Assembly (NCBI GenBank): GCA_046331505.1 | Contig: JAXLQT010000008.1 | Span: forward strand, 11,567-75,566 | DNA: 64,000 bases | Source of the DNA: Acidobacteriota bacterium | GTDB taxonomy: Bacteria > Acidobacteriota > Vicinamibacteria > JAXLQT01 | Direction of reading: 5' to 3' | Notes under the pieces: model-generated | The model's database searches: none | Seen by the model: only the letters and a program-made list of their open reading frames with translations | Told to the model about the DNA's origin: nothing | Translations under genes and position numbers: made by a program | Shown here: piece after piece, positions 7,972-64,000 of the stretch | Layout: each line of letters starts with the position of its first letter | Numbering within the stretch: the first letter of the stretch is position 1

Positions 7972-8166
7972 CCCCTCACGGGACGCGGCGCACTGTCAGT
8001 GCGGCCATGACGTGCCTTACTGTCGAAACACTCGCCATTCTGTCAGCCGCGGAACGGTCGCCATTGTTCCGCAATTGCACACCGCGGTTCGAACGTTGCG
8101 ATCGCTCCGTCGCGCGAGTCCCTGTCGGGTGGCACGAGCGATGCTGGATCCTCTTGCGGTGCAGCC

Positions 8167-17522: not shown

Positions 17523-17642
17523 TGACCGCCCGCCCGGGACGACATGAACAGGCGCTCCCCGCGGGCACACTCTCCGGCGACTGCACCGCGCGGGGGCGGC
17601 CACCGCGAGCGCGGCCCGGAAGCACGAGCAGAGGAGTCGAGA

Positions 17643-35249: not shown

Positions 35250-37650
35250 GCCGGGGCCCGGGAGGCGAGCCTGCGGGACCGTCCGTCCTCGAGGCGCGTG
35301 GGGCGTTCGCGAGGATGGCGCCGAGGCGATCGAGGAGCCCATCCGCGCCGAGCGGCTTCGGGAGGATGTCCGTCGCGAGCTCGCCGGCACGGGCCACCAC
35401 GGAGTCGTCGCCGTGACCCGACACGAGGAGCACCGGGATCCCGGGTCGCTGCCTCCGGAGCCGCTCGATCATCTCGAGGCAGGGAAGCCCGGGCATGACG
35501 ATGTCCGACACGACCGCGTCGATCGCGCCCCGGTGTACGGAGGAGGCGTCCACCGCCTCGGAGCCGTTCGACGCCTCGAGGACGCGATACCCGCCGCGGG
35601 TCAGGATGCGCGATGCGAGGCCGCGGACCTCCGGGTCGTCCTCGACGAGCAGGATCGTCGCTCCGTCTGCGACACGCGACGTGACCGGGCGGTCCGCGCT
35701 GGAGGCGGGCTGCGCGGGCAGCGCAGTGGCGGGGGGAAGGTAGATGTCGAAGCGCGTGCCATCTCCCGGGCTGCTCTCCACGGTGATCGCGCCGCTGCTC
35801 TGCTTCACGATGCCGTAGACCGTCGACAGGCCGAGGCCGGTGCCCTTTCCCTTCGGCTTGGTCGTGAAGAACGGCTCGAAGATGCGCGCCATCGTGGCGT
35901 CGTCCATGCCGGTGCCGGTGTCGCTCATCATGATCTTCACGTAGCGGCCCGGCGGAAGCTCGCCGCGCTGCTCGCCGTTGTCGACGACGCTCGTGCTGAT
36001 GGCGAGGGTTCCACCGGTGGGCATCGCGTCCCGCGCGTTCACGGCCAGGTTGACGAGCACCTGCTCGATCGCTCCGCGATCCACGTGGATGTCCGGGAGG
36101 CCCTCGCCGAGCACGATCGACAGATCGATGTCCTCCTCGAGCAGGCGGCGCATCCATCGTCCGACCTCCGAGACGACCTCGTTGACGGGGAGCCGCGCCG
36201 GCCGCATCACCTGCTTCCTGCTGTAGGCGAGGAGCTGGCGCGTAAGATCGGCGGCGCGTTGCGCTGCGTCGCGGATGCTCTCCATGTCTTGCCGGGCGGT
36301 GTCGCTCGCGACCTCGGGCAGCACGAACTCCACCCCGTTCAGGATGATGGTGAGGAGGTTGTTGAAGTCGTGCGCGACTCCGGCGGCGAGCCTGCCGACC
36401 GCCTCCATCTTCTGCGCCTGGAGGAACTCCTCCTTCAGCTTGCGCACCTCGGTCAGGTCTCTCAGGCCCACCACGCGCGTGTGGCGGCCCGCGTGCGCGT
36501 AGGAACGCGCGACCACCTCGCACGGGACACTGGTCCCGTCGCGGCGGACCAGCTCCGTCTCGTAGCGCGCACTGTCGCGCGCGCGGATGCGGTCTGCCAC
36601 CGTCGTCCGGTGCTTCTCGGCGATGAGGTCGAGGGCGGCGCGCCCCTTGAGCTCCTCCAGTCCGAATCCGAGCATGCGAGCGAGGCCGGGGCTCGCGTCG
36701 ACGACCACGCCGTCCTCGTGGACGAGGATGCCGTCGAAGGACGCCTCCACGACGCTGCGGTACCGGAGCTCGTTCTCGCGCAGCATCTCCTCCGCGCGGG
36801 AGCGCTCGGTCACGTCCCGCGACACGGCGATGACCACCGTCTCGCCGTGGAGCTCTGCGAGGGAGCCCGTGGCGTCCACCCTTCTTTGCTCCCCCCCGGG
36901 AACGTCGATCAGGAGGCCCAGGGCCGTGCCCTGTCCTCTGGCGAGGATCTCCTGGAAGATGCTCTGGGCCTCGGCGCGCGCCGAGGGGGCGACGAGCGCC
37001 GTGAAGGGTCGTCCGACGATGTCGGATCTGGGGCGGCCCGCGAGCGCCTCGGCACGGCGGTTCACGTCTCGCACGAGACCGTGGGTGTCGAGCACGGTGA
37101 TGGCATCGCTCGATCCGTCCATCAGGGTGGCGCGCGCGGCTTCCGAGGCCCGGAGCCGCTCGGCGGCTTTCTCGTGCAGGCTTGCTCGTTCGAGCGCGAT
37201 GCCGACCTGATGGCCGAACGCATCCAGGAGCTCGATCGTCTCGTCGTCCCACGCGCTGCACGCCAGGTTCAGGATCCCGACGCGTGCCTGGCGCGTCCAG
37301 AGGGGGACCGTCAGATGGTGGCGCGGACCGGGGATCGCGGGGTCCATCGCGGCGAGGCGCTCGCACTCGACGATCGACGTGGTCATCGAGGGATGGCCTT
37401 CGAACAGCCTGCGACACGTGCAGCCGGTCTGGAGCGCCCCGGGCTCGAGGAGGCTCGGAGGGAGGTTGCGTGTGGCTGCGACCCGGAATCCACCGTCAAT
37501 GCGCACGATGACCATGCCGAAGGCGGCCCGCGAGAGCGTCATCGCTTCGTCGAGCGCGGCATCGGCGACGTCCTCGATGGTCACCGAGCGATTGAGCTTG
37601 CGCGCCAGGCGCAGCATTGCGGACGGTCCCGCGCCGTCCTCGCGGGTCAT
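35236..37650 (-). CDS. Hybrid sensor histidine kinase (GAF-PAS-PAS-HisKA-HATPase-REC).
   Basis: H-box AAGVAHDFNNLL. N, G1 and G2 boxes (NLAVNARDA, DTGTGMD, GLGLS). Receiver TILLVEDDPEVR...VVSDIVMPG. Start is uncertain (37650 or 37674). Confidence 0.85.
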   Translation of the reverse strand: MTREDGAGPSAMLRLARKLNRSVTIEDVADAALDEAMTLSRAAFGMVIVRIDGGFRVAATRNLPPSLLEPGALQTGCTCRRLFEGHPSMTTSIVECERLAAMDPAIPGPRHHLTVPLWTRQARVGILNLACSAWDDETIELLDAFGHQVGIALERASLHEKAAERLRASEAARATLMDGSSDAITVLDTHGLVRDVNRRAEALAGRPRSDIVGRPFTALVAPSARAEAQSIFQEILARGQGTALGLLIDVPGGEQRRVDATGSLAELHGETVVIAVSRDVTERSRAEEMLRENELRYRSVVEASFDGILVHEDGVVVDASPGLARMLGFGLEELKGRAALDLIAEKHRTTVADRIRARDSARYETELVRRDGTSVPCEVVARSYAHAGRHTRVVGLRDLTEVRKLKEEFLQAQKMEAVGRLAAGVAHDFNNLLTIILNGVEFVLPEVASDTARQDMESIRDAAQRAADLTRQLLAYSRKQVMRPARLPVNEVVSEVGRWMRRLLEEDIDLSIVLGEGLPDIHVDRGAIEQVLVNLAVNARDAMPTGGTLAISTSVVDNGEQRGELPPGRYVKIMMSDTGTGMDDATMARIFEPFFTTKPKGKGTGLGLSTVYGIVKQSSGAITVESSPGDGTRFDIYLPPATALPAQPASSADRPVTSRVADGATILLVEDDPEVRGLASRILTRGGYRVLEASNGSEAVDASSVHRGAIDAVVSDIVMPGLPCLEMIERLRRQRPGIPVLLVSGHGDDSVVARAGELATDILPKPLGADGLLDRLGAILANAPRASRTDGPAGSPPGPRHARP

Positions 37651-41881: not shown

Positions 41882-43268
41882 TCAGCTCGGTTCGCTCGGA
41901 CTCTCCGTCGTCTCGGCGGCGTTGTCGCGTTCGCGCCGGTAGAGGGTGCGCGCGCTGACCCCCAGGATCTCCGCGGCGCGCGTCTTGTCCGAACCGGTCT
42001 GCTTGAGCACGTACTGCGTGTACTCCCGCTCGATGGTCTGCAGCGTGATCCGGTGGGCGTAGAGCTTGTCGAGCCCGGGCACCGTGGGCTTTGCCGGCGC
42101 GAGATCGAGGTCCGACACGCCGATGCTCTCGCCCGCCGACATGAGGCATGCGCGCTTGATCGTGTTCTCGAGCTCCCGCACGTTGCCGGGCCACGAGTGC
42201 TTGGCCAGCGCCGAGCGCCGCCTCGGGCGACAGGTCCTTCGGGCGTCCGGCGACTTCCCCCTGGATGCGCTCGAGGAAGTGGTCGATGAGCAGGGGGATG
42301 TCCTCGACGCGCCGCCGTAGCGGAGGGATGCGTAGCCGGATGACGTTGAGCCGGTAGTAGAGGTCCTCGCGGAAGTTGCCGCGCTCGACCTCTTCCTTCA
42401 GGTCCCGGTGCGTCGCGGTCACCACGCGCACGTCGACGGTCTTCTCCTCGGTCGCGCCGACGGGGCGGATCCCCTTGTTCTCCAGGACGCGCAGGAGCTT
42501 GGCCTGGAGCGCCTTCTCCATCTCGCCGATCTCGTCGAGGAAGAGCGTGCCTCCGGATGCGGCCTCGAACAGCCCGCGCTTGCTCGTGGCCGCGCCGGTG
42601 AAGGCGCCGCGCACGTGGCCGAAGAGCTCGCTCTCGAGGAGCTCACCGGGGAGCGACGAGCAGTTCACCGCCAGGAAAGGCTTGTCCCGCCGCGGGCTGT
42701 TGTAGTGGATGGCGCGGGCGACGAGCTCCTTGCCCGTCCCGCTCTCGCCCAGGATCAGCACGTGGTCGTTCGACGGCGCGACCCGTTCGATGAGGGCGAA
42801 CAGGTCCTGCATCTCCTTGCTACGACCGACGAGGTTGCCGAAGCTGTAGCGACCCTCGACCTCGCGCTGCAACCGCACGTTTTCCGCCTTGAGCCGGCTC
42901 ACCTCGACGGCCTTCTCGACCGTGGCGAGGAACTCGGACATCTTGAACGGCTTGGTCACGAAGTGGAACGCCCCGCGGCGCATCGCCTCGACGGCGGCGT
43001 CGATCGTGCCGAACGCGGTGATGACCAGGGTCACCAGTCCGGGATGGAGCTTCGTGGCGTGATCGAGAAGCTCCATGCCGTCGATGCCCTTCATCCGGAG
43101 GTCCGTGATGAGGAGGTCGGGTCGGGTCCTCCGCAGGGAGGCGAGCGCCTCCTCTCCCGAGGATGCCTGCTCGACCACGAGGCCGCGCTCGGAGAGGACG
43201 TCGACGAGAAGCGAGCGCATCTCGCCATCGTCGTCGACGCACAGGACGGTTGCGGCATCGCTTCCCAC
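41882..43268 (-). CDS. NtrC-family sigma-54-dependent response regulator (REC, AAA+, HTH). Frame disrupted near 42205.
   Basis: REC domain ([10 protein letters not shown]...[14 protein letters not shown]). AAA+ domain ([15 protein letters not shown]...GAFTGA...). The [15 protein letters not shown] and HTH ([15 protein letters not shown]) lie in another frame (track ORF 41882-42181). Start is uncertain. Confidence 0.7.
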
Positions 43269-43324
43269 GGGGCGTTCGATTATAGCGGCGCCCGGCCCCC
43301 CATCTTCCTCGTGTCCCGGTCCGG

Positions 43325-43468
43325 TCAACCGCGCGGCCCCCGACCTCGGAGGCTCTCGATCTCGCCGCGTAGCCTTCGCTCGCGCGATCCGAGGAGGATC
43401 GCGTAGAGCGCGATCGCGGCGTAGACGACGGCGTAGGCGATGCAGACGGCGGTGAAATCGTTCTTCAT
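43325..43468 (-). CDS. ccmD: Heme exporter protein CcmD (small single-TM).
   Basis: [33 protein letters not shown]..., 47 aa. ATGA overlap with the ccmC stop. Confidence 0.6.
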
Positions 43469-44190
43469 GACTCCCTCGAGGCGGCCTTCATCTCCTGGAT
43501 CTCGTCCTCGCAGCGAAGCAGGCGCGCGCGGCGCGCGACGAGGCCGGCGAAGAGGAGGAGGAACGCCGCGCCGCACGTGAAGAGGGCGCCCCTCATCTCG
43601 GGGGCGAGGCCGCCCCCTCGGGCGCCGATGACCGGCGCCGGGTGCTGGGTACGGAACCACTGGATGGAGTAGTAGACGAAGGGCACGTCGAGGAAGGCGA
43701 CGATGCCGTAGATCGCGAGGACGCGCCGGATCCTCCCGGGGTCGAGCGCGTTGATGCGGATCATGAGGTAGCCGACGTAGGTCAGCCAGAGGACGAAGGT
43801 CGAGGTGAGGCGTGCATCCCAGGTCCAGTAGACGCCCCAGTCGTTCTTGGCCCAGATCGGGCCCGTGACGAGCACGAGGGTCGTGAAGAGCACGCCCACC
43901 TCGCAGGCGGCCTGCGCGGCGCGATCGAAGGCCTCTCGTCCCGTGGCGAGGTAGAGCGCGCCCGCCCCGCCGACGATGAGGAACCCGAGGAACCCGGCCC
44001 AGGCGCACGGGACGTGGACGTAGAAGATGCGCTGGCTGTCGCCGAGCGTTGCCTCGGTCGGGGCGACCACCAGAGCACGGTAAAGCCCCCAGGCCATCAG
44101 CGGAACGGAGAGGAGAAGCGCCGCATCGGCGATCGACCACGCGAAGGCTCGGGTCGCTGCTCGGGGTCGCGGGAGGACGGTCGCGGTCAT
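43465..44190 (-). CDS. ccmC: Heme exporter protein CcmC.
   Basis: Trp-rich signature [13 protein letters not shown], conserved His residues, about 6 TM helices. Confidence 0.85.
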
Positions 44191-44525: not shown

Positions 44526-44664
44526 GCGTCTCGCTCCTCGTTCGTCAGCATGGCAAAGGGCGTGACAGCTTGTCGGGACACAGGATCTGGCGTCGGCATG
44601 TCCTGAGAGATGCCATCGTCGTTGGCCCGGAGGTTGCTCGACACACACCGCCGAGGAGACATTC

Positions 44665-45489
44665 ATGGTCGATTCCGGTCGGAAAACCGAGGGGACCCTG
44701 CTCGCCCTCCTGTTCCTCGCCGTTGCCGCCATCACCGTGGTCGCGTTCAAGTGGAAGACCTGGCTGCCTCCGGTGGCTTCGGTCCATGGCCACGGCGTCG
44801 ATCGCGTCATCGATTACCTGCTCGTTGCGACCGGCATCATGTTCGTCGCCGGGCACCTCGTGCTGGCCTTCTTCGTGTGGGCGGGCGCGCGGCGGACCGC
44901 CGACGTGGAGGGAAGCGTGAGCACGCGCATGGAGTGGCTCACGGCGCTTGCTCCCGTGCTGATCCTCGCCGGCGTGTCCGAGGTCGGTGTGATGGTGATG
45001 GGGCTTCCTGTGTGGGCGCAGGTCTACGGCGAGCCTCCGGCCGACGCGCTCCGCGTCGAGATGGTGGGACGCCAGTTCAACTGGACGGCGCGTTATCCCG
45101 GCAAGGACGGTGTCTTCGGACGAACCGATCCGCACCTGGTCGACGACGAGAACATGCTGGGTCTCGATGGAAAGGACCCAGCGGCGCGGGACGACATCGT
45201 CACGCTGGGACCGCTGACGATCCCTGCGAACCGTCCGATCTTCGTTCAGCTCCGATCCCACGACGTCATCCACAGCTTCTCCGTCGTTCACCTGCGCGTG
45301 AAGCAGGACGTGGTTCCGGGCCTCGTGAATCACACGCGGTTCGTGGCCGACACCGAGGGAACGTACGAGATCGGCTGCGCGCAGGTGTGCGGGCTCGGCC
45401 ACTACCGCATGCGCGGCTTCGTCCATGTGGTGAGCCCGGCGGACTTCGAGACGTGGCTCTCCGGCCAGTCGCCGGCGCTCGATCAATAG
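44665..45489 (+). CDS. coxB: Cytochrome c oxidase subunit II (CuA cupredoxin).
   Basis: Two N-terminal TM helices. CuA site H...CAQVCGLGHYRM. RBS GAGGAG. Confidence 0.9.
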   Translation: MVDSGRKTEGTLLALLFLAVAAITVVAFKWKTWLPPVASVHGHGVDRVIDYLLVATGIMFVAGHLVLAFFVWAGARRTADVEGSVSTRMEWLTALAPVLILAGVSEVGVMVMGLPVWAQVYGEPPADALRVEMVGRQFNWTARYPGKDGVFGRTDPHLVDDENMLGLDGKDPAARDDIVTLGPLTIPANRPIFVQLRSHDVIHSFSVVHLRVKQDVVPGLVNHTRFVADTEGTYEIGCAQVCGLGHYRMRGFVHVVSPADFETWLSGQSPALDQ

Positions 45490-45497
45490 GAGGCGCA

Positions 45498-47201
45498 TTG
45501 TCCCACTCGCACCACCCGCAAGGATTCCTCGGGAAGTACGTCTTCAGCTTCGACCACAAGGTGATCGGAATCCAGTACATCGTGACGGCGATGATGATGG
45601 CCCTGGTGGGCGGGGCGCTGGCCCTGATGATCCGCATGCAGATCACCTGGCCAGGGAAGGCGATCGTCTCCCCCGAGACCTACCTGAGCCTCGTCACCAT
45701 GCACGGGACGATCATGATCTTCTTCGTGGTGTCGCTCGCGCTCGTGAGCGGGCTGGGCAACTTCGTGATCCCGCTTCAGGTCGGAGCGAAGGACATGGCT
45801 TACCCGCTCCTGAACATGCTCTCCTACTGGGTCATCGTCCCCGCGTGCGCGCTGATGGTGGGCTCCTTCTTCGTCGAAGGCGGTGCGGCGTCGGCCGGAT
45901 GGACATCCTACCCGCCGCTCTCCGCCGTCAAGGGCGCGGTGCCCGGCTCGCAGATGGGGCAGACGCTCTGGCTCCTCGCGATGGCGCTCTTCATCGTCTC
46001 CTTCACCATGGGCGGGCTGAACTACCTGACCACGATCCTCTGTTGCCGCGCCCCCGGGCTGTCGATGATGCGCCTGCCGCTGGTCATCTGGCACTTCCTG
46101 CTCGCGACGATCCTCGGGCTGCTGTCGTTCCCGGCGCTGACGGCGGCCGCGGTGCTGCTGCTGTTCGATCGCCATCTCGGCACGAGCTTCTACCTGCCGA
46201 GCGGCCTCATCATCGGCGACACGGTGCTCAAGAACGGCGGCGGGACCCCGCTCCTGTTCCAGCACCTCTTCTGGTTCCTGGGGCACCCCGAGGTGTACGT
46301 CCTGGTGTTGCCGGCAGTGGGGGTCGCCTTCGACGTGATCCCGACCTTCACCCGGCGGCCGCCGTTCGGCTATCGCGTCACGGTGACCGCGCTCATGGTC
46401 ATCGGGGTGCTGTCGATGATCGTCTGGGGTCACCACATGTTCCTGACCGGGATGAACCCGTACGTCGGGGAGTACTTCTCGGTCGCGACGGTGCTCATCA
46501 CGGTTCCCTTCGCGGTGCTCGGGGTCAACCTCCTCGCGAGCCTCTGGCGCGGCCGCATCCGCCTCGCGGCACCGATGCTGTTCGCGCTCGGCCTCATCTC
46601 CACCATCGGAGCCGGCGGCTTCGGAGGACTGTACCTCGGCACGGCAACCTCGGACATCTACCTGCACGACACCTACTTCGTCGTGGGCCACTTCCACCTG
46701 ATGATCGGCGTGACGACGCTTCTCGCGACCTTCGCCGGGATCTACTACTGGTTCCCGAAGATGTTCGGCCGGCACATGAACGAGACGTTCGGGAAGATCC
46801 ACTTCTGGCTGACCTACGCGCCGATGCTGCTCCTGTTCGTCTCGATGCACCTCCAGGGGCTCGGAGGCGCGCTCCGCCGTCAGTACGACCCGACGAGCTA
46901 CGAATACGCCCGCTCCGTGCGCGAGATCGATCCGATCTTGACGGCGCTGGCGATCGTCGTCGTGTCCTCCCAGTCGATCTTCGTGGTGAACTTCGTCTGG
47001 AGCGCGTTCAAGGGCAAGAAGGCGGCCGAGAACCCGTGGGAGGCGACGACGCTCGAATGGACCACGCCCTCGCCGGCGCCGCACGGCAACTGGGATGCGA
47101 CCCCCGTCGTCACGCACATGCCCTACGTCTTCGGGAAGAACGGCGCCAAGAAGGACTACGTGATGCAGGGCCAGGTGCCCGAGCGGGAGAAGGTCGCGTG
47201 A
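45498..47201 (+). CDS. coxA: Cytochrome c oxidase subunit I.
   Basis: [31 protein letters not shown] and VGHFHLM signatures. TTG start after AGGAGG. The upstream part of track ORF 44610..47201 overlaps coxB and is not part of the gene. Confidence 0.9.
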   Translation: [567 protein letters not shown]

Positions 47202-47707
47202 GCGCCGAGGCGCTCCGTTCGCGGACGAACGACGTCGCGCTGCTCGCGGTCCTTTCGATCGCGACGATGCTCTTCACCTCGTTCACGGCGGCCTATGTCA
47301 TCCGCCGCACCAGCGTCGACTGGGATGGGCTCGCCCTTCCCGGCATCGTCTGGCTGAACACGGCCCTGCTCCTGGGAAGCAGCGCGACCATCGAGGCGGC
47401 GAGGCGGAGGGATGCCGGCCGGTGGCTCGCCGTCACAGCGGTCCTCGCCGCAGGCTTCGCCTGCGGGCAGGTCGTGGCGTGGCGGATGCTGACGGCCGCG
47501 GGCACGCCGCTCGGCGCTGGGCCGCACGCCGCGTTCTTCTATGTCCTCACCGGCGTCCACGCGGCGCACTTGGCCGGCGGGCTCGGCGCCCTGTGGCGCG
47601 TGATGTCACGAGGCGCGCGCGCCGAGGCCGTGCGGCTGCTCTCGATCTACTGGCACTTTCTCGCGGCAGTGTGGCTCTACGTCCTGCTGCTCTTGACCGC
47701 GCTGTAG
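47198..47707 (+). CDS. Short cytochrome oxidase subunit III-family protein.
   Basis: GTG overlaps the coxA stop (GTGA). TM protein with YWHFLAAVWLYVLL (subunit III signature YWHFVD..W). Only the last 170 codons of track ORF 45845..47707 are real. Confidence 0.65.
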   Translation: MSAEALRSRTNDVALLAVLSIATMLFTSFTAAYVIRRTSVDWDGLALPGIVWLNTALLLGSSATIEAARRRDAGRWLAVTAVLAAGFACGQVVAWRMLTAAGTPLGAGPHAAFFYVLTGVHAAHLAGGLGALWRVMSRGARAEAVRLLSIYWHFLAAVWLYVLLLLTAL

Positions 47708-47716
47708 GAGGCGATA

Positions 47717-48343
47717 ATGGCTTCGGCGTACGAGCTCGGCCACGACACATACTCCGACCGCTCGGACTGGCGGGGCGGGGTCTCGCCATTCGGCACGTCC
47801 TGGCAGAAGACGATGATGTGGTTCTTCATCGTGTCGGACGCCCTCCTCTTCGGCGCGTTCCTCGCGGCCTACGGATTCAAGAGGCTGGCCGCCGGGACGT
47901 GGCCGGACCGGACGCACGTCTTCCACATGTCCTACATCACGGTGATGACGTTCGTGCTCATCACGTCGAGCGCCACCATGGCGTCTGCGGTCGCGGCTGC
48001 CAGCGCGAGCAGGAAGCAGGCAGCCTCGCGGTTCCTCCTGTTGACGATGCTCGGAGGCGCGGGGTTCCTCGGGATGCAAGCCTACGAGTGGTCGAGCGTG
48101 ATCCGCGAGGGCGCGCGGCTCCACGCCAATCCGTGGGGCGTCCCCGACTTCTCGAGCTTCTTCTTCGTCATCACGGGCTTTCACGGAACACACGTCCTCA
48201 TCGGAGTGATCGTGCTCGCGGCCACGCTCTTTAGGAACGCGACGGGCCGCGTGTCGCGCGAGGGCGTGGAGCTATGCGGGCTCTACTGGCACTTTGTCGA
48301 TCTGGTCTGGGTGTTCATCTTCGGGTTGTTCTATCTCGTGTAG
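47717..48343 (+). CDS. coxC: Cytochrome c oxidase subunit III.
   Basis: MASAYELGHDTYS... HGTHVLIG...GLYWHFVDLVWVFIFGLFYLV. Confidence 0.9.
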   Translation: MASAYELGHDTYSDRSDWRGGVSPFGTSWQKTMMWFFIVSDALLFGAFLAAYGFKRLAAGTWPDRTHVFHMSYITVMTFVLITSSATMASAVAAASASRKQAASRFLLLTMLGGAGFLGMQAYEWSSVIREGARLHANPWGVPDFSSFFFVITGFHGTHVLIGVIVLAATLFRNATGRVSREGVELCGLYWHFVDLVWVFIFGLFYLV

Positions 48344-52672: not shown

Positions 52673-55311
52673 TCAGGGCTGCGGAGGACCGGTGACCCGG
52701 GCGGCAAGAGCGCGGGCGCGGGCGCGAAGCGGCGCGTAGACGGCGTGGACATCGGACAGGGGAGCCTGGCCGGCCTCGGCGCGTCGAGCGACGTCGGCGG
52801 CCAGATCGCCGAACAGCGTCTTGCCCATCGTCGCCGCCAGTGGCGGGGCCGGGGCAGGCGTTGCGGGGGCAGGCGTGCTTGACTTTCGATCACCTTCGCC
52901 CACGACGCTCGACTTCGCGGGCGCCGCGACCGCCACCGCGGCCCTGTAGAGGGCGGCGGCACCGGCCGCGTCACCCGCCTCGTAGCGCAGGTAGCCGGCG
53001 AGGAGCCGCGCCTCGACGCTCTTGGGATTGGTGCGCACGGCTCCCTCGAGCAGGCGCGCTGCCTCGCCGCGCTCGCCCTTGACGATGAGCAGCTCGCCGA
53101 GCCGCACGATGGGGCCGGTCTCCTCGCCGTTGATGGCGTGCGCGCTCCTGAGGTGCTCCTCGGCCCCCGAGACGTCGATCGGCGTGCCCTCGTCGGGCGA
53201 CGCGAGGAGGGCGGCCAGCGCCAGATGGCCGCGCGCGCTTCTCGGGTTCACCAGCACCAGCCGGTCGAATGCCGCCCGCGCTTCGGGCCTCTGTTCGAGC
53301 TTCTGGCGGCACTGGCCGAGGTAGTAGAGCGCGTCCTCGTGCCGCGGATCGATCGTGAGGGCCTCTTCGTAGGCGCTCGCGGCTCCCGCGAAGTCCTTCC
53401 GCGTGCGCCGTCCCGTCGCCTCGTCGAGCCTCTGCCAGAATAGCCGTATGTCTTCCCGGCGCGCGACGCGTGCGGGGGCGCGGCCCCGGCGACCTCGATC
53501 GCCGGGTTCCCTTCGGTGATCCGCAGTGTGTGATCGACCGGCAGGTTCTCGAAGGACTGGGTGGTGCCGCTCGGCCACGCCACCTCGATGCGATCGATGG
53601 ATGAAGCCCCGGCGAGGCCGAAGTGGACCTCTCCGGGAGACGATTGCGACAGGTAGGACGGTCCGCCTCCGACGGCGCGCACCTGCACGCCGGCGCTCGA
53701 TCGGAGCGTCACGAGCGCGCCATTGGCGAATGTGGTGCTGGCAGGGAAATGGCTGCCCTTCGCGCCCCGCAGCACCAGGCGGGCGAAGTGGTGGCCGGTT
53801 GCCTGCGTGTTCTGGAGGAGCCGGGCGTCGCCGCCGTTGACGGCGATCGCGCAGTCGACGTCGCCGTCACCGTCGTAGTCGGCGCAGGCGGATCCGCGCC
53901 CGACGTGCTCCGTCTGGAAGGGGGCTCCCCCGCGCGTGCCTGCCTCGAAGAACCCCTCGGCCTTTCCCGCGTTCCAGAAGAGGAGGTCCTTCATCGGCAC
54001 GAGCCGCGACGCATCGTCCTCGCGCTGGAAGGTGCTTCCGTTGACGACGAGGAGATCGAGCCGCGCGTCGTTGTCGTAGTCCAGGAACTCGGTTCCCCAG
54101 CCGACGTAGTCGAGGGCGATCTGGCCGAGCCCCACGAGGTCGGCCTCGTCGGTGAAGTGGAGGGGATCGCGTGGCGAGGCGGCGATGTTGCCCTTCTGGT
54201 TCACGTAGAGGGCGTTCTCCTGGGCGATCCAGTGCGTGATGAAGATGTCGAGGTCGAGGTCTCCGTCCCAGTCGCCGATGGCGAGGCCCATCGCGCCACG
54301 GTAGTCTGCCACCCACGCCGAATGGCTCACGTCCTCGAACGTCCCGTCGCCGACGTTCCGGTACATCGCATTGTCCGAGATGTCGTTGGCGACGTAGAGG
54401 TCGGGCCAGAGGTCTCCGTCGAAGTCCGCCCAGGCGGCGGACAGGGATCTCCCCGAGGGGTTGTCGACACCGGCGCGCGCTGCGCTCTCGGCAAAGCGCA
54501 TCCGCCCCTCGTTGTGGAACAGGAGGTTCCGCTCGGGGGTGAAGCTCGAGGGGTTGAGACTGGCGGGGACCGTCGCCTCGTACATGCGAGACGCGCCAGA
54601 CGCGCTCGCGACGTACCGGACGTATCCGCACACGTAGAGATCGAGAGCGCCGTCCCGGTCGTAGTCACCCCAGGAAACGCCGGTCCAGAAGCCCTCGGGC
54701 TCTCCCATTCCACTCTCGCGCGACACGTCGGCGAAGGTGGCGCCGTCGTTCCTGTAGAGGGCGATCGTGCCGAATCGCGAGACGGCGAGATCCAGGTCGC
54801 CGTCGCCGTCGGCATCCCCCCAGGCGGCGCCCATGCCGAGGCCTCTCGCTCCCACGCCGGCCTCCGTGGTCACGTCCGTGAACCGGCCCCCGTCGTTCCT
54901 GTAGAGCGCCGAGCGGGCGGGCGATGCCTCGATCTCCACCGCCGTGGCCGTCAGCGGGCCAGACTCGTTGACCAGGAACAGATCGGGATCGCCGTCGCCG
55001 TCGTAGTCTCCCCACGCCACTCCCGAACCCATGTCCTCGGGGAGCTGCGTCGACCGCTTGCCGTGGAAGTGGTGGAACGCGATGCCGGCGTCGGCCGCCA
55101 CGTCCCGCCACGCAACATCGGGGATCCCGTTCGGCGCCGGCCGTGCGAGGTCGTGCGTGATCTCGTCGCTCGATGCGGCCTCGACGCCCGGGGTGTAACC
55201 GATGACGCGGGGCCCGCGCAGGAGGAGCAGAGCGGCACCGGCCGTCGCCGTGACGCATGCGTAGAGGATGCGGCGCTGGGTGCGGCGGGTGAGGGGACCT
55301 CGTGCGATCAC
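52673..55311 (-). CDS. CRTAC1-family protein (FG-GAP/VCBS repeats plus ASPIC/UnbV domain) with C-terminal TPR domain. The frame changes near 53475.
   Basis: GDYDGDGDPDLF-type FG-GAP/VCBS repeats and the ASPIC-like region are in track ORF 53248-55311. TPR repeats are in track ORF 52673-53578. Start is GTG at 55311. Confidence 0.65.
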
Positions 55312-55312: not shown

Positions 55313-57442
55313 TCATCTCGGCCGCGGGGGATCCATGGCCAGCGCCAGGTGCCCGGAGGCGATGGGCACCGTCTTCTCGGCCCTGGCCATCTCGGTGACC
55401 GGCGACGTGAGGCCCGCCCCCTCGCCGAACATGAAGTTGAGGAGGTACTGATCGATCTTCCGGTACATGAGGCGCCCCTTCACGTGGAGCGTCGCGACCC
55501 CTCCGGGCACGGCGACGCCGAAGCTCTGGCTCTGGGACTCCGGAACGGTCGCGTTGCTCGCGCCGCCGGGGCAACGGAAGGCGTACTCGGCGGTGTCGGA
55601 GAACCCGGGAAACAGCGAGCGCCGGTAGCGCACGCCCACCATCTCCCAGAGGTTGTGGCGGTCGATGAGGTTCCCGTACTGGTCCACGGGCTCCGCCTTG
55701 AACATGAACGATCCGGGCGCGATGAAGTGGCGATCGTCGACCGAACCCGAGGAGAAGATCTCTCGCCCCCCGTCGTCGGAGACGGTGATCTCGATCCACG
55801 ACTGGATGATGTCGAGGGGACCGGTGGGGAAGTCGTGGCCGACCTTGTTCGAGGTGACGACGGCCTTCACCTTCATCTCCTCGCCTGCGCTCGCCTCCGG
55901 TGGCACGTCGAGCTCGATCGCGACGGCGGGGCCCGTTCGCCACTTGCCGGCGATCTCGGGCACCTCGAGCTGGCCCTTGAGCCAGCTCTCGGTCAGCGCC
56001 ACCTGCTTGTCGGCCCCGGGGATCTTGAGAAGGGCCGGCATGAGCTGGTTCGCCCCGACGAATCGGTGGCTCCGGTGGCGCCCGTCGAGCTCGCTCCGGT
56101 TGTAGTCGGCCCCGTCTCCGGCCGCCGGGTCGCTGGAGGCGACCAGCGGCATGTGGCACTCGCGGCACTCGATGGTCTTGCGTGGATCGCCGGGATGGTT
56201 CCAGCGGCTCTTGCGCCAGTTGTCGTACTGGTTCTGGAGCTGCACCCAGCCGACGTTGTTCACCTCCTGGTCGATGAACTGCTTGTGGCACGCGGCGCAG
56301 TACTCGGGAGTCTTGAAGAGCCGCTTGGAGAGGTCGGCCTGGTGGGCCTTGGGATAGGAACGGATGAGGAAGTCCCGCAGCGCCCGTGCGCCGTTGCCGT
56401 CGTGGAGCTCGAAGAGGTACCGGCGCGGCTGCCCGACGACGTAGTTCGCGTTTCCGAGAACGTCGGTCTTGCGCACCGAGTGGCACACGAGGCACGACAC
56501 GCCCTCGTCGTAACCCGCGAGGCCGCTGAGGTGCTCGGTGAAGATGTTCTTCGTCCCCGAGAAGAGCGAGATGGGATCGTGGCAGCCGCCGCAGTAGCGC
56601 GTCGACTCGGCGCCGTTCTGCTTGGCCATCTCCTCCTGGATCCGCTGGAACCCGGGGTCCATGGACGCCCAGCGGTGCGCGCTCACGCTCCACTCGGCGG
56701 CGATCTGCTCGTGACAGCGCGTCGTGCCGCAGGACGCCGATCCCGAGAACGAGCGTGCGTCGTACGCGCCGCCCGAAGCGGTGTGCGCGAGGCTCGGTGC
56801 AAAGGGGCGGTCACGGCCGAGCTTGTAGGAGTAGTCGTCCGGGAACCGGTCGATCATGCGGTCGCCCGGATAGGCGCGCCAGAGGGCGGCGATGGGCGCC
56901 GCCATGACGAGCGCGAGGACGGAAGCGAGTACGAGCGCCCGCCTCTGGGCGGCGAGCAGGTCGGTCGCCCCGCCGAGGGCGCGCAGGCCGAGGTCTCGCA
57001 GCAGCACGATCCCGACGTGCGGCAACAGGAAGCCGCAGAGTGCGTAGGTGGCGAAGAGGTGCGCCTTGCTCCATCCGTATCCGATGCGCGTACCGAAGAT
57101 CGCCTGGAACGTGAGCACGCTTCCGGTCGCGAGCGCCACCGTCGTCGCCAGCGCCGCGGCGTATCCCATCGCCTTGTTGGCCGAGAGCGGCCGCGACCAG
57201 TACACCCGCAGGTGGCGGATCTGGTAGGCCAGGACCGGGACGAGGAAGAGGAGACCGATCCCGGTATGGACGATCACCGTCCACTGGCTGGCTGCCGAGA
57301 ACGGAAGGAACGTGACGGCGAGCCCGCTGCCGGTCTCGAACATGAGGTAGGCGAGCGTCGCGACGGCGAGGCGTTTCCGCCACTCCGCCGCCCGCGACGA
57401 GATGCCTCGATTCGGGCCGGATTCGCTCGGTGGGACGTTCAT
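55313..57442 (-). CDS. Membrane-anchored multiheme cytochrome c with an N-terminal polytopic (b-type-like) domain.
   Basis: ATG with GGGAGG RBS. 4-5 TM helices carry conserved His. Periplasmic domain has CGGCH, CLVCH, CAACH, CRECH plus CGTTRCH. Large heme-free C-terminal domain. Confidence 0.75.
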   Translation of the reverse strand: MNVPPSESGPNRGISSRAAEWRKRLAVATLAYLMFETGSGLAVTFLPFSAASQWTVIVHTGIGLLFLVPVLAYQIRHLRVYWSRPLSANKAMGYAAALATTVALATGSVLTFQAIFGTRIGYGWSKAHLFATYALCGFLLPHVGIVLLRDLGLRALGGATDLLAAQRRALVLASVLALVMAAPIAALWRAYPGDRMIDRFPDDYSYKLGRDRPFAPSLAHTASGGAYDARSFSGSASCGTTRCHEQIAAEWSVSAHRWASMDPGFQRIQEEMAKQNGAESTRYCGGCHDPISLFSGTKNIFTEHLSGLAGYDEGVSCLVCHSVRKTDVLGNANYVVGQPRRYLFELHDGNGARALRDFLIRSYPKAHQADLSKRLFKTPEYCAACHKQFIDQEVNNVGWVQLQNQYDNWRKSRWNHPGDPRKTIECRECHMPLVASSDPAAGDGADYNRSELDGRHRSHRFVGANQLMPALLKIPGADKQVALTESWLKGQLEVPEIAGKWRTGPAVAIELDVPPEASAGEEMKVKAVVTSNKVGHDFPTGPLDIIQSWIEITVSDDGGREIFSSGSVDDRHFIAPGSFMFKAEPVDQYGNLIDRHNLWEMVGVRYRRSLFPGFSDTAEYAFRCPGGASNATVPESQSQSFGVAVPGGVATLHVKGRLMYRKIDQYLLNFMFGEGAGLTSPVTEMARAEKTVPIASGHLALAMDPPRPR

Positions 57443-58068
57443 GGTACGACCTCCCGCCGTGGAGCGTAGGCGGCGTCCGGGTTGCCCGCAATCCCTCGTT
57501 CGAGGGATCTCCATGCCGCGAATGCGTGATTGCACGCGCGTCGTCCCTACCCGCATCGGCGGATGAGTCGCTCCCTCCCTCGACCGGCTGCCGCCTCCGG
57601 GCTAACTGTTCTGATCCGCAGGATCCATGAGACCGACCCCCTGGGCTGCTCCCGGTGCCAGGGTCAGATCCGCATCATCGCCTTCATCGCCGACCTCGAG
57701 GTCGTCAGGAAGAACCTCGGGCACCTGCGTCGTCCCTCCGGGAACCGTGCTCCTCGCAACGAAGGCGTCGCGGTTCCGATCCAGCGCTGATCCGCCATCC
57801 TCCCGATACCAAGACATCGGACATGGCCGAGGACCGCCACGACGCGCCCGCGCTCTTCGCCGCGGGGACAACATCATGCGCCACCCCGCTCCGGTGCCCT
57901 CACGCGGCACGCCTGTGGACGCCGAATCGCGTCGAATCTTCCCTCGCCGACGCCTAGGAGGGACGGGAGACAACGAAACGCTGCCCAGATGCCTCGCCGC
58001 ACCGGAAGGAAGTCCCTATCCATCCGGAGGTGGAATAGAATCTCGACCGGCGGAGGTGCGATTCGGGC

Positions 58069-60639
58069 ATGAGGGGAGCGGGCCAGGTGAGTGCAGCCAT
58101 GGCGGCATTGATGGCCGCCGCCCCGTCGGCCGCCGCGGTCGTCATGCCCTTCGAGGAGCGCCTGAACGCGCTCGAGCGAATCGAGCGGGTCTACGACGCG
58201 CGGCGCACCTGGCCGGAGGTCAATCGTCGCCCGAAGCCCGCCTTCACACGGAGGCTTTCTCGCGAGGCGCTGGCGCGCAAGGCGGAGCGCGCCCTCCGGG
58301 AGTCCGCCGCGCTGGACGTCTTCTTCGAGGCGCCGATCACCGCCGGCGATCTCCGCGCGGAGTGGTCGCGCATGTCGCGCGACACCCATGACCCCGCGAT
58401 GCTTCGCGAGATCCTCGAGGCCGCCGGGCACGACGAGCTCACAGTGCTCGAGTGCGTCGTCCGTCCAGGCCTCGCGGCGAGACGTTTCCGTGAGCGGTAT
58501 GCGTCGGATCGGCGCACCCACCCGGCCGTGCGAGACGCTGGCTGCCTGGGGCTGGCCATCCCGATCCTCACGACTCCGGGGGAGTCGCCCGACGCATGGC
58601 TGGAGCATCTGCCGATGCCGCAGGACTGGAGGACTCCAGCCATCGATCTCGACGCCGCCGGGCCCCATCGTCCCGAACGCGCTGGCATCCACAGCGACCC
58701 AGATCCGCGAATCGTGGGACAGGCGCTCTGGACGGGATCCGAGATGCTCGTCTTCGGGAAGGGCGCCTGCCGTGGAGGACGCTACGACCCGGCGACCGAC
58801 GAGTGGCACTGGATCCCGTCCGTACCAAGCAGCCTCTACCCGAACGCCACCGTCGTGTGGACGGGCAGCGAGGCGATCCTCTGGGGAGGCTCGGACGGCC
58901 AGTACTACTCGAACTGGGGTGCGAAGTACGACCCCGTTGCCGAGACCTGGACACCCATCGGTGGACTCCCCGCGGCCCGCTACCGCCACTCCGCCGTCTG
59001 GACAGGGACGGAGATGATCGTCTGGGGTGGTCAAGTCGCGAACCACTTTCCGACGAACACGGGAGGCCGGTACGATCCGGTGACCGACTCGTGGACGCCC
59101 ACGGGACTCGGCGCTGGCACCCCTTCGCCGCGAGAGGTCCACACGGCAGTGTGGACCGGTCAGACGATGATCGTCTGGGGCGGCCAGTACTTCGGGACGC
59201 TCGGGGACGGAGCTTCCTACGATCCCGTAGCCGACTCGTGGAACACGTTGCCGTCGTCCCAGGCTCCGTCGGCCCGCGTCGGCCATTGCGCGGTCTGGAC
59301 CGGCTCGACGATGCTCGTGTGGGGAGGAGAGACCTTCTCTCCCTCGCAGGAGCTCGGAGACGGCGCCGCGTTCGATCCCGTCGCGAACGTCTGGCGTCCC
59401 GTGTCCCTGTTGAACGCGCCGTCTCCCCGGCACGGTCACACGATGATCTGCACCGGTTCCGAAGCCATCGTCTGGGGAGGGAGCGGTCCGGCCCAGCTCC
59501 TCGAGGACGGCGGCCGCTACGATGTTGCCTCGGACACGTGGCGCCCGACCGCGGTGAACGGATCGTCGCCAGTCGCGCGGATCGATCACTGCGCCGCATG
59601 GACGGGCACCGAGATGATCGTGACGGGCGGCACTCCCGCGAGCGGGACCGGCGGCCGTTACGACCCGGTCGCCGATTCCTGGACGCCGACGCGCTCAGAA
59701 TGGACCGCCCCGATCTTCGGAAGCGGCGTGGTCTGGGATGGCGCGGAGATGATCGTCTGGGGTGGGAACGATCTTGCCGGGAACGTGACGAACCAAGGAG
59801 GACGCTACGATCCCGCCTTGGACGCCTGGACGCCGACGGCGCTGACCACGGGCGTGCCGCCTCCCGCCATCCTGGGTGCGGCCGTGTGGACGGGAACGGA
59901 GATGATCGTCTGGGGGGGCTCGAACGGGCAGGAGGGTGGCCGCTACGATCCGCTGACCGATTCGTGGGCCGCGACGACCACCGGCGGCGCTCCGGAGCCA
60001 CGCCAGTACCCGACTGGCGTGTGGACAGGAACCGAGATGATCGTCTGGGGTGGGGAGGGGAACGGTGGCGGCCTGGACACCGGGGGCCGATACGATCCCG
60101 TTTCCGATTCGTGGCGGCCCACGTCCACGGGTGCCGGATGTCCGGCTCCTCGCTACTGGCACGCCTGCGTCTTCACGGGCTCGCTCATGATCGTGTGGGG
60201 GGGTGCGAAGTACGGGGTCTACTACGGGGACGGCTCCCTGTACGATCCCGCATCAGACTCGTGGCTTCCCATGACCGGGGCGGGCGCTCCATCGGCTCGA
60301 TGGGGCTCGACGGCCGTCTGGACGGGAGTGGAGCTCATTGTGTGGGGAGGATACGGTGCGGGGGGGCCTCTGAACACCGGAGGCCGCTACGATCCCGTGG
60401 TCGACTCGTGGAACACGATGGGTGTAGGCGCCGGCACTCCGGTGTGGCGCTCTGGACACACGGGCGTCTGGACCGGCCAGGCCCTCATCGTCTGGGGGGG
60501 CGATTCGGGCAATTACAATTATCTCGACAGTGGAGGGCTTTATATCCCCGCGACGGACGCCTTTGGCAACCTACGCCGCTGGCGGACGCGCCGTACAGAC
60601 GTCAGGAGCACGCTGCGGTGCGGAGCGGCACAGAAATGA
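58069..60639 (+). CDS. Giant Kelch-like beta-propeller repeat protein (about 14 units) with a 200-aa N-terminal non-repeat domain. The frame breaks near 60555.
   Basis: Unit AVWTGTEMIVWGG...GGRYDPxxDSWTPT of about 50 aa repeats about 14 times. An alternative start at about 58099 has an AGGTGAG RBS. Confidence 0.7.
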   Translation: MRGAGQVSAAMAALMAAAPSAAAVVMPFEERLNALERIERVYDARRTWPEVNRRPKPAFTRRLSREALARKAERALRESAALDVFFEAPITAGDLRAEWSRMSRDTHDPAMLREILEAAGHDELTVLECVVRPGLAARRFRERYASDRRTHPAVRDAGCLGLAIPILTTPGESPDAWLEHLPMPQDWRTPAIDLDAAGPHRPERAGIHSDPDPRIVGQALWTGSEMLVFGKGACRGGRYDPATDEWHWIPSVPSSLYPNATVVWTGSEAILWGGSDGQYYSNWGAKYDPVAETWTPIGGLPAARYRHSAVWTGTEMIVWGGQVANHFPTNTGGRYDPVTDSWTPTGLGAGTPSPREVHTAVWTGQTMIVWGGQYFGTLGDGASYDPVADSWNTLPSSQAPSARVGHCAVWTGSTMLVWGGETFSPSQELGDGAAFDPVANVWRPVSLLNAPSPRHGHTMICTGSEAIVWGGSGPAQLLEDGGRYDVASDTWRPTAVNGSSPVARIDHCAAWTGTEMIVTGGTPASGTGGRYDPVADSWTPTRSEWTAPIFGSGVVWDGAEMIVWGGNDLAGNVTNQGGRYDPALDAWTPTALTTGVPPPAILGAAVWTGTEMIVWGGSNGQEGGRYDPLTDSWAATTTGGAPEPRQYPTGVWTGTEMIVWGGEGNGGGLDTGGRYDPVSDSWRPTSTGAGCPAPRYWHACVFTGSLMIVWGGAKYGVYYGDGSLYDPASDSWLPMTGAGAPSARWGSTAVWTGVELIVWGGYGAGGPLNTGGRYDPVVDSWNTMGVGAGTPVWRSGHTGVWTGQALIVWGGDSGNYNYLDSGGLYIPATDAFGNLRRWRTRRTDVRSTLRCGAAQK

Positions 60640-61750
60640 TCGTCTGGGGAGGAAGATTCTCGCTGATGGGTGGGCGTTACGACTCCGGTGTCCGACACCT
60701 GGAGTCAGGGACCGACGCCCCTCGGGGACGACGTGCTCGTTGCCAAGGGATCCTCTTCCGGTGCCGGCTACGACTCGACCGTCGCCGGATACCGGCTCGA
60801 TCGCGGCGCCCCCGCCTTCTGGGGATTCCCGATTCCCGACGCTGGTAGGTTATGGAGCCAGCGTCGCCGGCGGGGACGTCATGGCCGGGGCCCTGCCGAG
60901 ATCCTCACCGGGCCCGGTCCTGCCCCCAGCATCTGCCAACGATCCGCGGGTTCGACCGCGCGGCGGCGCGCCGGTCGCGGGCCTCGACTTCCAGGCCTAG
61001 CGGCGCGACTGGCTTCGCGCCAACGGCCTCCGGCGCCATCGACACGGACGGCGAGATCCTCAACGCCCCGGCCCCTCCCCACCTTCGGCCCCCACGTGCG
61101 CGCCCAGGTACTTGGGAGGCGTCGTGTCGGCCATCTCGAAGGTTAGCTTCTACTCGTACGGAACTCCTCAAGTACGGCGTCGGCGTCGCCTCGGGGGATC
61201 TCGAACAGGACGGATATGACGAGATCGTGACGGGGCCGGGACCCGGTCCGGTGTTCGGACCGCACGTTCGTGCGTTCGACTTCGACGGGTCCGTCATCGC
61301 AGCAAAGCAGAAGATCAGCTTCTTCGCCTACGGCACGCCCCGTTACGGAGTCAATGTCTCGGCGGACGACGTGAACGGTGATGGCGCGGCGGACGTCACC
61401 ACCGGCCCCGGCCCGTCTCCGCCTGCGCCGCACCCGCGGCTTCGACGTGACGAACGGCGCTCCGGCTCCCATTCCCGGACTGTCGGCCTTCCCTCCATCC
61501 GCGCACCGGCCTGAACGTCGGCGGTGGAGATCTCGACAGCGACTTCAGGGACGAGATCGTCGCGGGTCCAGGACCCGACCCGACCTACCCATCGCGCTTC
61601 TCCGCCTACGACTTCGACTCGGGCGCACTCTCCGCAATCCCCGCCCTCGATCTCGATCCTTTCCTGCTCTCCTGCGGGACGAACGTCGGTGCCTCGAACC
61701 TGGGCCTCTGAGCGGATCGTTCCTCTCGCCGCCGTGGTCCTGGCGGTCGC
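60640..61750 (+). pseudogene. Degenerate FG-GAP-repeat region broken across at least 4 reading frames.
   Basis: FG-GAP-like peptides (DEIVTGPGPGPVFGPHVRAFDFDGS; SADDVNGDGAADVTTGPGPS; NVGGGDLDSDFRDEIVAGPGPDP) appear in different frames of track ORFs 60670-61146, 60852-61514 and 61378-61797. Confidence 0.5.
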
Positions 61751-64000
61751 GCACCCCTGCGATGGCGCCGCGCGCTTCCACGACGACGCGCCGATGACCG
61801 GCAAGGCCCTCTGGACGGGCACGGAGATGATCTTCTGGGGAGGAACGTCGGGATCGGGCGCACGCTACGACCCCGCCGCGAATGTGTGGCATCGGATGTC
61901 GACCGCCACGAACGCTCCGGGTTGGCGGAGCGGCTTCGGTATGGTGTGGGCGGGATCGGAGCTCCTCGTCTGGGGAGGCCTCCTCGGCGGCGGTTACACG
62001 AACACCGGAGCGCGCTACGAGCCGCGTTCCGACTCGTGGCGTCCTCTCTCGACCGCGGCCGGTTGCCCGACGGCGCGCGGCAGCCACTCCGCCGTCTGGA
62101 CCGGCGCGGAGATGATCGTCTGGGGGGGCTACGACGGCTATTCCTACCTCGACGACGGCGGGCGCTACGACCCTGCGACGAACGTCTGGCTTCCCATCGC
62201 CCCGACGTCGTCCACGCCAAGGCCGCGAAGGGACCATGCGGCGGTCTGGACGGGGAACAGAATGGTCGTCTGGGGAGGCAGGGCGTTCAGTAACTACGTG
62301 ACGGGCGGAACGTACGATCCCGTGACCGACGCCTGGGCCCCGACGTCCACGGGTCCGGGCTGCCCCACGGCACGAACCGACTTCACGACTGTCTGGACGG
62401 GCTCGCAGATGATCGTGTGGGGAGGACAGGACGGTGCCTACGGCAATTCTGGTGCGCGCTACGACATCGGCACGGATACGTGGACTCCAACGTCGATCGG
62501 CGGGCCGAGTCCGCCCACGGGCCGGTGGGCACACACAGCGGTCTGGACCGGAGCCGAGATGATCGTGTGGGGAGGCGAGTCCGCCGGCGGCCAGCTGGGT
62601 GACGCCTACGATCCTGCGACAGACGCCTGGCGGCCCGTTTCGTCCACTGGCGCGCCGAGCGCCCGTTCCCACCATGCTGCCGTCTGGACCGGCAGCGAGA
62701 TGATCGTGTGGGGCCAGTGGATGGAGGAGCCTGCCTCGGACGGAGGAAGTTACGACCCAGCGACGGATGCCTGGGCTCCCGTGCTTGGGGAGGATGGGCC
62801 AGACGTCGACGGCCCCGCGGTGTGGACCGGAACGGAGCTCCTCGTGTTCCCCGTCTATCAGGCCTCGGCGTGGCGCTTCGATCCGGATCGCGAGGCTTGG
62901 AGCGTCACCTCGCCTGGGCCGACACCGACGAGCCCCGAGTCCGTCGTCTGGACCGGGGTCGAGGCCATCACGTGGGGCGGAGCGACAGTGCGTGCCGGCC
63001 GGCGTTACGACCCGTCGCTCGACACATGGGGTTCCGTCAACCCGAACAGTCCGGCGGCGCTGTATCTCACCTCGGCAGTGTGGACAGGGACCGAGATGAT
63101 CACCTGGGGGGGCGCGACGGCGGCAGTCCAGCAGAACACCGGCGGTCGTTACGATCCCGTCTCCGACTCCTGGCTCGCGACCTCGACCAGCCCACCCGTT
63201 CCTTCGCCGCGATGGGGACATGGAGCAGTGTGGACGGGTACGGAGATGGTGATCTGGGGAGCCCGCTACCCGGCGCCGACCGACACCGGTGGCCGCTATG
63301 ATCCCTCGACGGACTCGTGGCGGACCACATCGACGGGGGCGGGCGTCCCGAGCCCTCGCATGGGATTCAGCGCGACATGGTCCGGGACGCGCATGATCAT
63401 CTGGGGTGGCGACGCCCAGTCGATCGGGGGCGCCTACGACCCCGCCGCCGACTCGTGGCAACCAATGGGTACGTCGGGTCAGGTCCCGTCCGCGCGGCGG
63501 TTTCATGGCGCCGACTGGACGGGTACGTCGCTCGTGGTCTGGGGAGGGGAATCTCTCGCTTCGCTAGACCTCGACACCGGCGCCCTCTACGACCCAGTGC
63601 TGGACACGTGGCGCCGCGTCACGACCGAGGATGCTCCCGAGGGTCGATTCGCTCCCCATGTCGTGTGGACCGGACGCGACGTCCTGGTCGAGGGCGGCGG
63701 CAAGCCAGGGGGTGGTCTCTACGATCCCGCACGCGACGTCTGGAACCACGGTCCGAGGACACGCGGCGACGTGGCCCTCGCGGGCAAGGGTCCCGGTGGA
63801 ACGGCCCTCTACGACGCGGCGTTCGACGCTCTCCGCGTCGACGGCGTCCAGCTTCCTTGGACGCTGGATCCCTTCCCCGGCGAGACCGGCGGCGGCGTGA
63901 ACCTCTGCGGCGCGGATGTCGTGGCCGGCGGAGCGGAAGAGATGCTGGCGGCGCACGGACCGTCTGCCCAGTTTTCGCCCCGAGTCCTTGGCTTCGACCG
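61697..64000 (+). CDS. Second Kelch-like beta-propeller repeat protein, partial: it runs off the window end.
   Basis: My own translation gives a continuous open frame from about 61697 (GTG, signal-like VPRTWASERIVPLAAVVLAVAHP) with at least 14 units A(V)WTG.EMI.WGG...YDP..D.W to position 64000. It is absent from the ORF track because there is no in-window stop. Confidence 0.6.

Follow-up and report, generated by a model that had tools for sequence, protein, structure and literature searches.

The window analysed here is a 64,000-nucleotide (nt) stretch of DNA from an Acidobacteriota bacterium (NCBI GenBank assembly GCA_046331505.1, contig JAXLQT010000008.1, positions 11,567 to 75,566 of the forward strand), and its final part carries two large plus-strand genes for multi-Kelch proteins. 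Gene 1 spans 58069-61711 in its reconstructed form and encodes 1,208 amino acids (aa) once about 12 single-base frameshifts are taken out by frameshift-aware alignment to a homologue, P0166. Its parts are, in order, a signal-like peptide, a helical N-domain, 14 Kelch blades and a C-terminal FG-GAP-type module. Gene 2 (61689-64000, plus strand) is incomplete at the window end and has no N-domain; its predicted parts are a signal-like start, 14 Kelch blades and an FG-GAP-type module that runs off the window. A first-pass annotation had described two Kelch-like blocks separated by about 1.1 kb of shattered FG-GAP-type sequence, and proposed either a broken giant protein or tandem paralogues with a degenerated linker. 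We consider it very likely that these are two separate, same-strand genes of one very large family of secreted multi-Kelch proteins, and that blade 14 and the C-terminal module of gene 1 make up the sequence between the blocks, where about 12 single-base insertions or deletions (indels) interrupt them.

As assembled, gene 1 gives only a truncated 856-aa product, encoded by an open reading frame (ORF) at 58069-60639 (plus strand) that ends with TGA at 60637-60639 and whose final ~25 residues are out of frame. This ORF is 100% identical to a deposited protein, 'MAG: hypothetical protein U0166_09590 [Acidobacteriota bacterium]' (P0001; MAG, metagenome-assembled genome), on a 237,754-bp contig. 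Its N terminus (58069-58146, plus strand; MRGAGQVSAAMAALMAAAPSAAAVVM) reads as a signal-peptide-like sequence, and homologues have hydrophobic leaders at this position. The core of the all-helical N-domain follows (58147-58518, plus strand; residues 27-150); it is conserved across homologues, with E39, E98, R101, D122 and R132 among the invariant residues (alignment A2), and AlphaFold2 predicts a confident helical bundle (mean predicted local distance difference test score [pLDDT] of 90-98 per 10-residue block over residues 31-150). The first-pass annotation was right that block 1 begins with a non-Kelch domain, but the domain is not unique, as had been claimed: its profile matched 3,454 cluster representatives, 1,720 of them at E <= 1e-30, and it lies near the N terminus in nearly all of the 150 cluster representatives listed. 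Many family members carry an insert of ~100 aa that ends in a W.K..FD.WW motif; gene 1 has the short variant, which is without this insert and is also found in a second homologue, P0071, and at least 15 others. The N-domain has no match in Pfam and none in a profile search of PDB sequences, and the best Foldseek hit against the PDB reached only E = 1.5 with a template modeling (TM) score of 0.2. Judging from these searches, the helical N-domain appears to define a large unannotated family.

Both blocks are Kelch arrays, as hidden Markov model searches of the kind proposed by the first-pass annotation confirm. PF24681 scores 232 bits in the ORF at 58069-60639 and 239 bits in the open frame at 61647-63998 (cut-off 50), while Kelch_3 scores 65 and 77 bits (cut-off 22) and Kelch_1 40 and 68 bits (cut-off 20.1) in blocks 1 and 2, respectively. 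The units are 42-51 aa long and follow a WGG/GGRYD/W pattern. Each block had been credited with at least 14 units, a count that needs amending for block 1, where blades 1-13 (58723-60561, plus strand; 43-51 aa each) are in frame and blade 14 (approximately 60609-60729, plus strand) is shifted, being readable in two other frames (AAVRSGTEMIVWGGRFSLMGGRYD and PVSDTWSQGPTPLGD) with a copy of the 41-nt DNA core described below at 60613-60653. Gene 2 has exactly 14 units (61806-63794, plus strand). This array, which had been thought to continue beyond 64000, ends at 63794, and FG-GAP-type sequence begins at 63795. Because there are 14 units and units 7-8 are atypical in both genes, we infer that the units of each gene form two 7-bladed propellers.

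The stretch from 60640 to 61711 does contain FG-GAP-type repeats scattered over all three frames. To read through it, we used our own frameshift-aware alignment of the P0166 protein against window positions 60250-61760. P0166 (U0166_16465, 1,327 aa) is encoded on another contig of the same assembly and has the architecture of gene 1 intact, with a leader, N-domain, Kelch array and a C-terminal domain of ~330 aa whose repeats take the form YG.NVA.GD.D.DG..EI.TGPGPGP.FGP.VR.F..DG...F.AYG. The window is colinear with P0166 up to residue 1326 of 1327, with 13 frame changes, two of which (60654 and 60671) merge into one extra T near 60687. This leaves ~12 single-base events within 60562-61495 (plus strand), each placed within ~10 nt, at 60562, 60687, 60850, 60893, 60928, 60954, 60998, 61077, 61105, 61166, 61431 and 61495. 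By the direction of the frame change, eight are an extra base and four a missing base, and four of the frameshifts appear as 1-nt gaps when the DNA is aligned with the gene 2 module, whose start is intact.

Ten of these frameshifts fall within the C-terminal FG-GAP-type module of gene 1 (60730-61708, plus strand; ~330 aa), which comprises a half repeat, five full repeats and a closing strand and is unbroken at 61167-61430 and 61496-61708. The last repeat's frame runs into a TGA (61709-61711, plus strand), which we take as the original stop of gene 1 and which lies where the C terminus of the family normally falls: the final residues (...GTNVGASNLGL) match the ends of P0166 (...GVNVTAGALGY) and P0071, and they also fit ...HG.NVAAG.F, the typical ending of ~50 related modules. 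Over the whole protein, residues 21-1206 of corrected gene 1 align with P0071 (1,310 aa) at 41% identity, and residues 261-1207 align with P0166, reaching its C terminus. The colinearity with intact homologues and the stop at the family C terminus indicate that the middle stretch is blade 14 and the C-terminal domain of gene 1, and neither a degenerated linker, as one proposal had it, nor the middle of a giant protein.

The behavior of the module in other genomes also agrees with an end of gene 1 at 61711. A search of species-representative genomes with an alignment of the module yielded 52 loci (L002-L053; for example, L006 at 6474-9002, L017 at 5718-8921 and L034 at 6030-8996), 31 of them in one Acidobacteriota MAG (MFD03804.bin.1.167), 14 and 6 in a second and third MAG, and a single one in an Anaerolineaceae MAG. 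Most loci have the module no more than 3 residues from the ORF end; these ORFs encode 430-1,310 aa, and none contains Kelch motifs. Among nine module ORFs searched with Pfam, the N-terminal parts matched Peptidase_C25, Peptidase_C1, right-handed beta-helix/NosD and PETase-like hydrolase families, and also VCBS arrays, WD40/YncE-type propellers and fn3. In these related loci the FG-GAP scores of the module (39-128 bits) are above threshold; two module-bearing proteins were also tested against NCBIfam, and no model there hits the module. A crude rule assigns a signal-like leader to 34 of 50 ORFs with the module. The module is thus a C-terminal unit that secreted proteins of this Acidobacteriota lineage have in common.

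Gene 2 probably starts at GTG 61689 (MPRTWASERIVPLAAVVLAVAHPC...), from which translation gives a charged stretch that leads into 12 hydrophobic residues; the signal-like start that had been noticed in block 2 is thus seen if this codon is used. There is a weak GGGA upstream, and the GC content at third codon positions (GC3) is 0.83 across the first 35 codons by our own count. The GTG would overlap the original stop of gene 1 by 23 nt, an operon-like arrangement. Weighing against this assignment, an alternative start at ATG 61794 would leave the protein with no leader. The beginning of the gene 2 FG-GAP-type module (63795-64000, plus strand) is in frame to the window end, and a tblastn search matched the P0166 C terminus on 63144-63998. 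Because gene 1 is not among the eight best matches of gene 2, which are 44-48% identical to it, the two genes are diverged tandem paralogues with no recent duplication behind them, so that of the two original proposals the tandem arrangement stands and its decayed linker does not. The gene 2 product was not found in the protein collection, where its best match is 48% identical, whereas the truncated gene 1 ORF and P0166 are both present there, which suggests that gene 2 was perhaps flagged as disrupted beyond the window end.

The many overlapping ORFs in this region had been attributed to high GC content, and the coding statistics bear this out. GC3 is 0.81 in the frame of gene 1 and 0.80 in the open frame from 61689, but only 0.61-0.67 in the long shadow ORFs of other frames and the other strand; since a GC3 of about 0.80 is reached in one frame only, the shadow ORFs are by-products of high GC. 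The GC content of the repeats themselves, put earlier at 72 percent, measures 0.69, and that of the whole window is ~70%.

If gene 1 is read in this way, what caused the frameshifts? We lean toward uncorrected consensus errors in one patch of a metagenome-assembled contig, in which case gene 1 would be intact in the cell. Removing single bases restores the whole module with no large deletion, and the stop TAG at 60998-61000 arises from an extra G within an otherwise perfect ...FQAYGATGF motif. Spontaneous substitutions are about tenfold commoner than indels and are AT-biased, and if so, decay that had accumulated 12 or more indels should have brought a visible fall in GC. Instead, the GC3 of the corrected frame is 0.80, compared with 0.80-0.83 in intact parts, and overall GC is 0.686 in the broken region versus 0.690 and 0.697 in its flanks, with no AT drift. 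Spontaneous bacterial indels are also deletion-biased and concentrated in homopolymers, whereas two-thirds of the events here (8/12) are insertions and several sites are not in homopolymers.

Two conserved genes elsewhere in the window, where we judged frameshifts by the continuity of Pfam domains, are each broken mid-protein by one frameshift. feoB (minus strand) is split within 34650-34800 into ORFs at 34737-35468 and 33226-35235 between its G-domain and helical domain, so that one ORF ends with FeoB_N (profile positions 3-150 of 156) and the next contains FeoB_Cyto, Gate and FeoB_C. Their junction, near 34707-34757, has a GGGGCCGGG run and is consistent with one missing base. A gene for an NtrC-type sigma-54 activator (41885-43487, minus strand) is split inside the AAA lid at ~42200-42235, with REC and Sigma54_activat in one frame and AAA_lid_14 (profile positions 28-71 of 87) and HTH_8 in another. 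Taken together, the unchanged GC3, the restriction to single-base events and these two further frameshifted genes make errors slightly likelier than decay.

It is nonetheless quite possible that gene 1 is a genuine pseudogene, with the first frameshift near 60562 truncating it and neutral decay then affecting the 1.1 kb downstream as far as the gene 2 start, while selection still acts on gene 2 and on the 5′ part of gene 1. Several observations count against sequencing error and for this account. The frameshifts occur only within 60562-61495, after the first lesion and before gene 2, which is where a truncating mutation would lift selection, and their local enrichment is very large (12 in 0.93 kb, versus 2 in the rest of the window, where 35 ORFs were examined). 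Among full-length copies, the corrected module diverges most (223 bits to P0166 versus 233-351 for ~50 others) and has the fewest matches to conserved columns (0.62 versus 0.70-0.73 in the nearest relatives). However, the mismatches gather at the frameshift junctions and may hide further compensated shifts, and Kelch-linked modules form a divergent subgroup in any case. Broken module copies exist in a second assembly too, as L051 (8001-9064) in MFD03804.bin.1.167 needs 4 frameshifts to be read through and L037 (8920-8963) needs 2; the other copies in that genome mostly need 0-1, which speaks against the error reading.

Disrupted repetitive beta-propellers are also documented. Pereira and Lupas (2022; PMC9218822) described propeller genes interrupted by frameshifts, with more blades readable in the downstream 'non-coding' DNA, including a Kelch-like case from a metagenome-assembled genome, and cautioned that sequencing errors might be involved. 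The blades in those cases are highly repetitive and were amplified recently (median identity 76% for the Kelch example), whereas the blades here are ~43% identical and most lesions lie in the non-Kelch module. Decay would, moreover, have to proceed with neither AT drift nor a lowered GC3, and by single-base events alone, with more insertions than deletions and no larger deletions, which is unusual given the general indel pattern. A product with ~12.7 blades would also have to stay functional to explain why the 2.5 kb upstream within gene 1 are without a lesion, and the scattered shifts seen in feoB and in the gene for the NtrC-type activator point to sequence errors.

Whichever process produced the frameshifts, a single ancestral giant of at least 2000 aa (Kelch, FG-GAP, Kelch and more), now broken, is very improbable. 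It would account for the shared orientation of the two Kelch arrays and for the protein-like sequence that bridges them. Yet the bridging module stops, with a TGA, where P0166, P0071 and most of the ~50 related modules end; the module sits at the extreme C terminus in most relatives, and gene 2, which has a leader of its own, begins 23 nt ahead of that stop in a different frame. An uninterrupted giant ORF had been suggested as something to look for in related genomes, but P0166 and P0071 end after the module and homologues are typically 900-1,500 aa long. Less probable still is a contingency locus, in which recombination or slippage among near-perfect internal repeats would make blade number or frame phase-variable: a conserved 41-nt DNA core does recur in 26 copies, spaced mostly 129-153 nt apart, but core identity is only 63-88%, whole units are on average 60% identical in DNA (maximum 69%) and 43% in protein (maximum 67%), the longest exact repeat is a single pair of 24 nt, Tandem Repeats Finder detected no array and no simple-sequence tract in the repeat blocks, and the frameshifts lie mostly in the FG-GAP module, away from repeat junctions. 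The claim of near-perfect repeats therefore fails, and, given repeats of ~60% DNA identity and so short an exact match, the phase variation built on it is unsupported.

Gene 1 and gene 2 resemble known, if uncharacterised, proteins. More than 7,000 proteins match gene 1, and most of the 222 that we fetched have the N-domain first, then ~12 Kelch units by our own motif pattern, then variable C-terminal domains; the closest relative of gene 1 in the protein collection is 49% identical. With bacterial multi-Kelch proteins of 900-1,500 aa such as P0071 and P0166, gene 1 has in common the blade consensus AVWTGxEMIVWGG...GGRYDPxxDxW, the helical N-domain, ~12-14 blades and the C-terminal FG-GAP-type module. 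Unlike in these proteins, to which identity is only 41-49%, the module of gene 1 is frameshifted and gene 2 is without an N-domain; the P0071 gene, unlike gene 1, is not followed by a second family member.

Many homologues (P0002, P0007, P0008 and others) carry the automatic label 'N-acetylneuraminic acid mutarotase'. The NanM/YjhT mutarotase model TIGR03547 gave 29.5 bits for gene 1, 23.4 bits for gene 2 and 25.3 bits for P0166 against a cut-off of 256, and as these three tested members reach about one-tenth of the cut-off, the label is probably an over-annotation of the family. NanM/YjhT, from which the label comes, is a single six-bladed Kelch propeller that has Kelch-type blades in common with these proteins but is quite different in size and architecture.

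The surroundings of the two genes are rich in respiratory genes. Immediately upstream of gene 1, on the opposite strand and divergent from it, is a gene for a multihaem-cytochrome-like protein (55313-57556), preceded on the same strand by one for an FG-GAP_3/UnbV_ASPIC protein (53248-55311). Respiratory genes are abundant at 17526-22242 (plus strand), 22273-25895 (minus strand) and 55313-57556 (minus strand); the window has two very large multihaem cytochromes (687 and 917 aa) with MtrC/MtrF-like domains, an NrfD / 4Fe-4S / cytochrome c7 set, hypD/hypE at its start and cytochrome oxidase genes at 44566-48343. A promoter and terminator scan of 57400-62000 found no signal above chance.

What might these proteins do? 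The leaders, the calcium-loop-like motifs and the partners of the module in relatives (proteases, hydrolases and adhesin-like beta-helices) suggest that both are extracytoplasmic, and no catalytic signature was found; they would be non-catalytic binding proteins. In such proteins the Kelch propellers could offer ligand-binding faces, and the C-terminal module, with its DxDxDG-like calcium-loop motifs, may be a common binding or surface-attachment unit. The module resembles the integrin-alpha-type FG-GAP propeller of bacteria (Chouhan et al., 2011; PMC3192720) in its ~57-aa repeat, its YG...GD.DGDG..E...G.GPG signature, its DxDxDG-like motifs and a split first/last repeat, which suggests ring closure. 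Rather than the seven consecutive repeats of the FG-GAP propeller, the sequence gives five full repeats and one that is split between first and last positions. Other findings weigh against the functional reading. Tested with Pfam FG-GAP (PF01839) and FG-GAP_3 (PF13517), the window copy falls under the cut-off of 22.1 bits, both in the ORF at 60852-61514 (20.2 bits) and in the corrected gene 1 module (13.5 and 17.9 bits), whereas the P0166 module is above threshold (30.6 and 31.1 bits). AlphaFold2 predicts the fold of the module only poorly (pLDDT 29, from a 5-row alignment), and the family, very large as it is, has no characterised member.

A more speculative and rather unlikely reading is that the module is an undescribed, strictly C-terminal, propeller-like domain of ~330 aa that serves for surface anchoring or export targeting in this lineage. 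In related Acidobacteriota, dozens of different secreted proteins per genome carry the module; its partners include papain-type and gingipain-type peptidases, alpha/beta hydrolases, beta-helix proteins, other propellers and, in the window's own assembly, Kelch arrays. A literature search for a C-terminal FG-GAP sorting module in Acidobacteriota returned nothing relevant. If the reading were true, the role of the module would be comparable to that of the C-terminal sorting domains of other phyla, and it would not be merely another binding domain.

The locus is, then, an ordinary tandem paralogue pair of a large, known kind of protein, with one copy frameshifted in its tail, possibly by assembly error. 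Public databases already hold a truncated 856-aa 'hypothetical protein', where the real or ancestral protein has 1,208 aa and an extra domain, and the case cautions that patches of frameshifts in metagenome-assembled genomes can look like pseudogenes or 'decayed linkers'. With these genes, a family of secreted Kelch proteins in environmental bacteria that is very large and wholly uncharacterised gains two members. Finally, the helical N-domain and the C-terminal FG-GAP-type module, both unannotated, could help to define the secreted proteins of uncultured Acidobacteriota.

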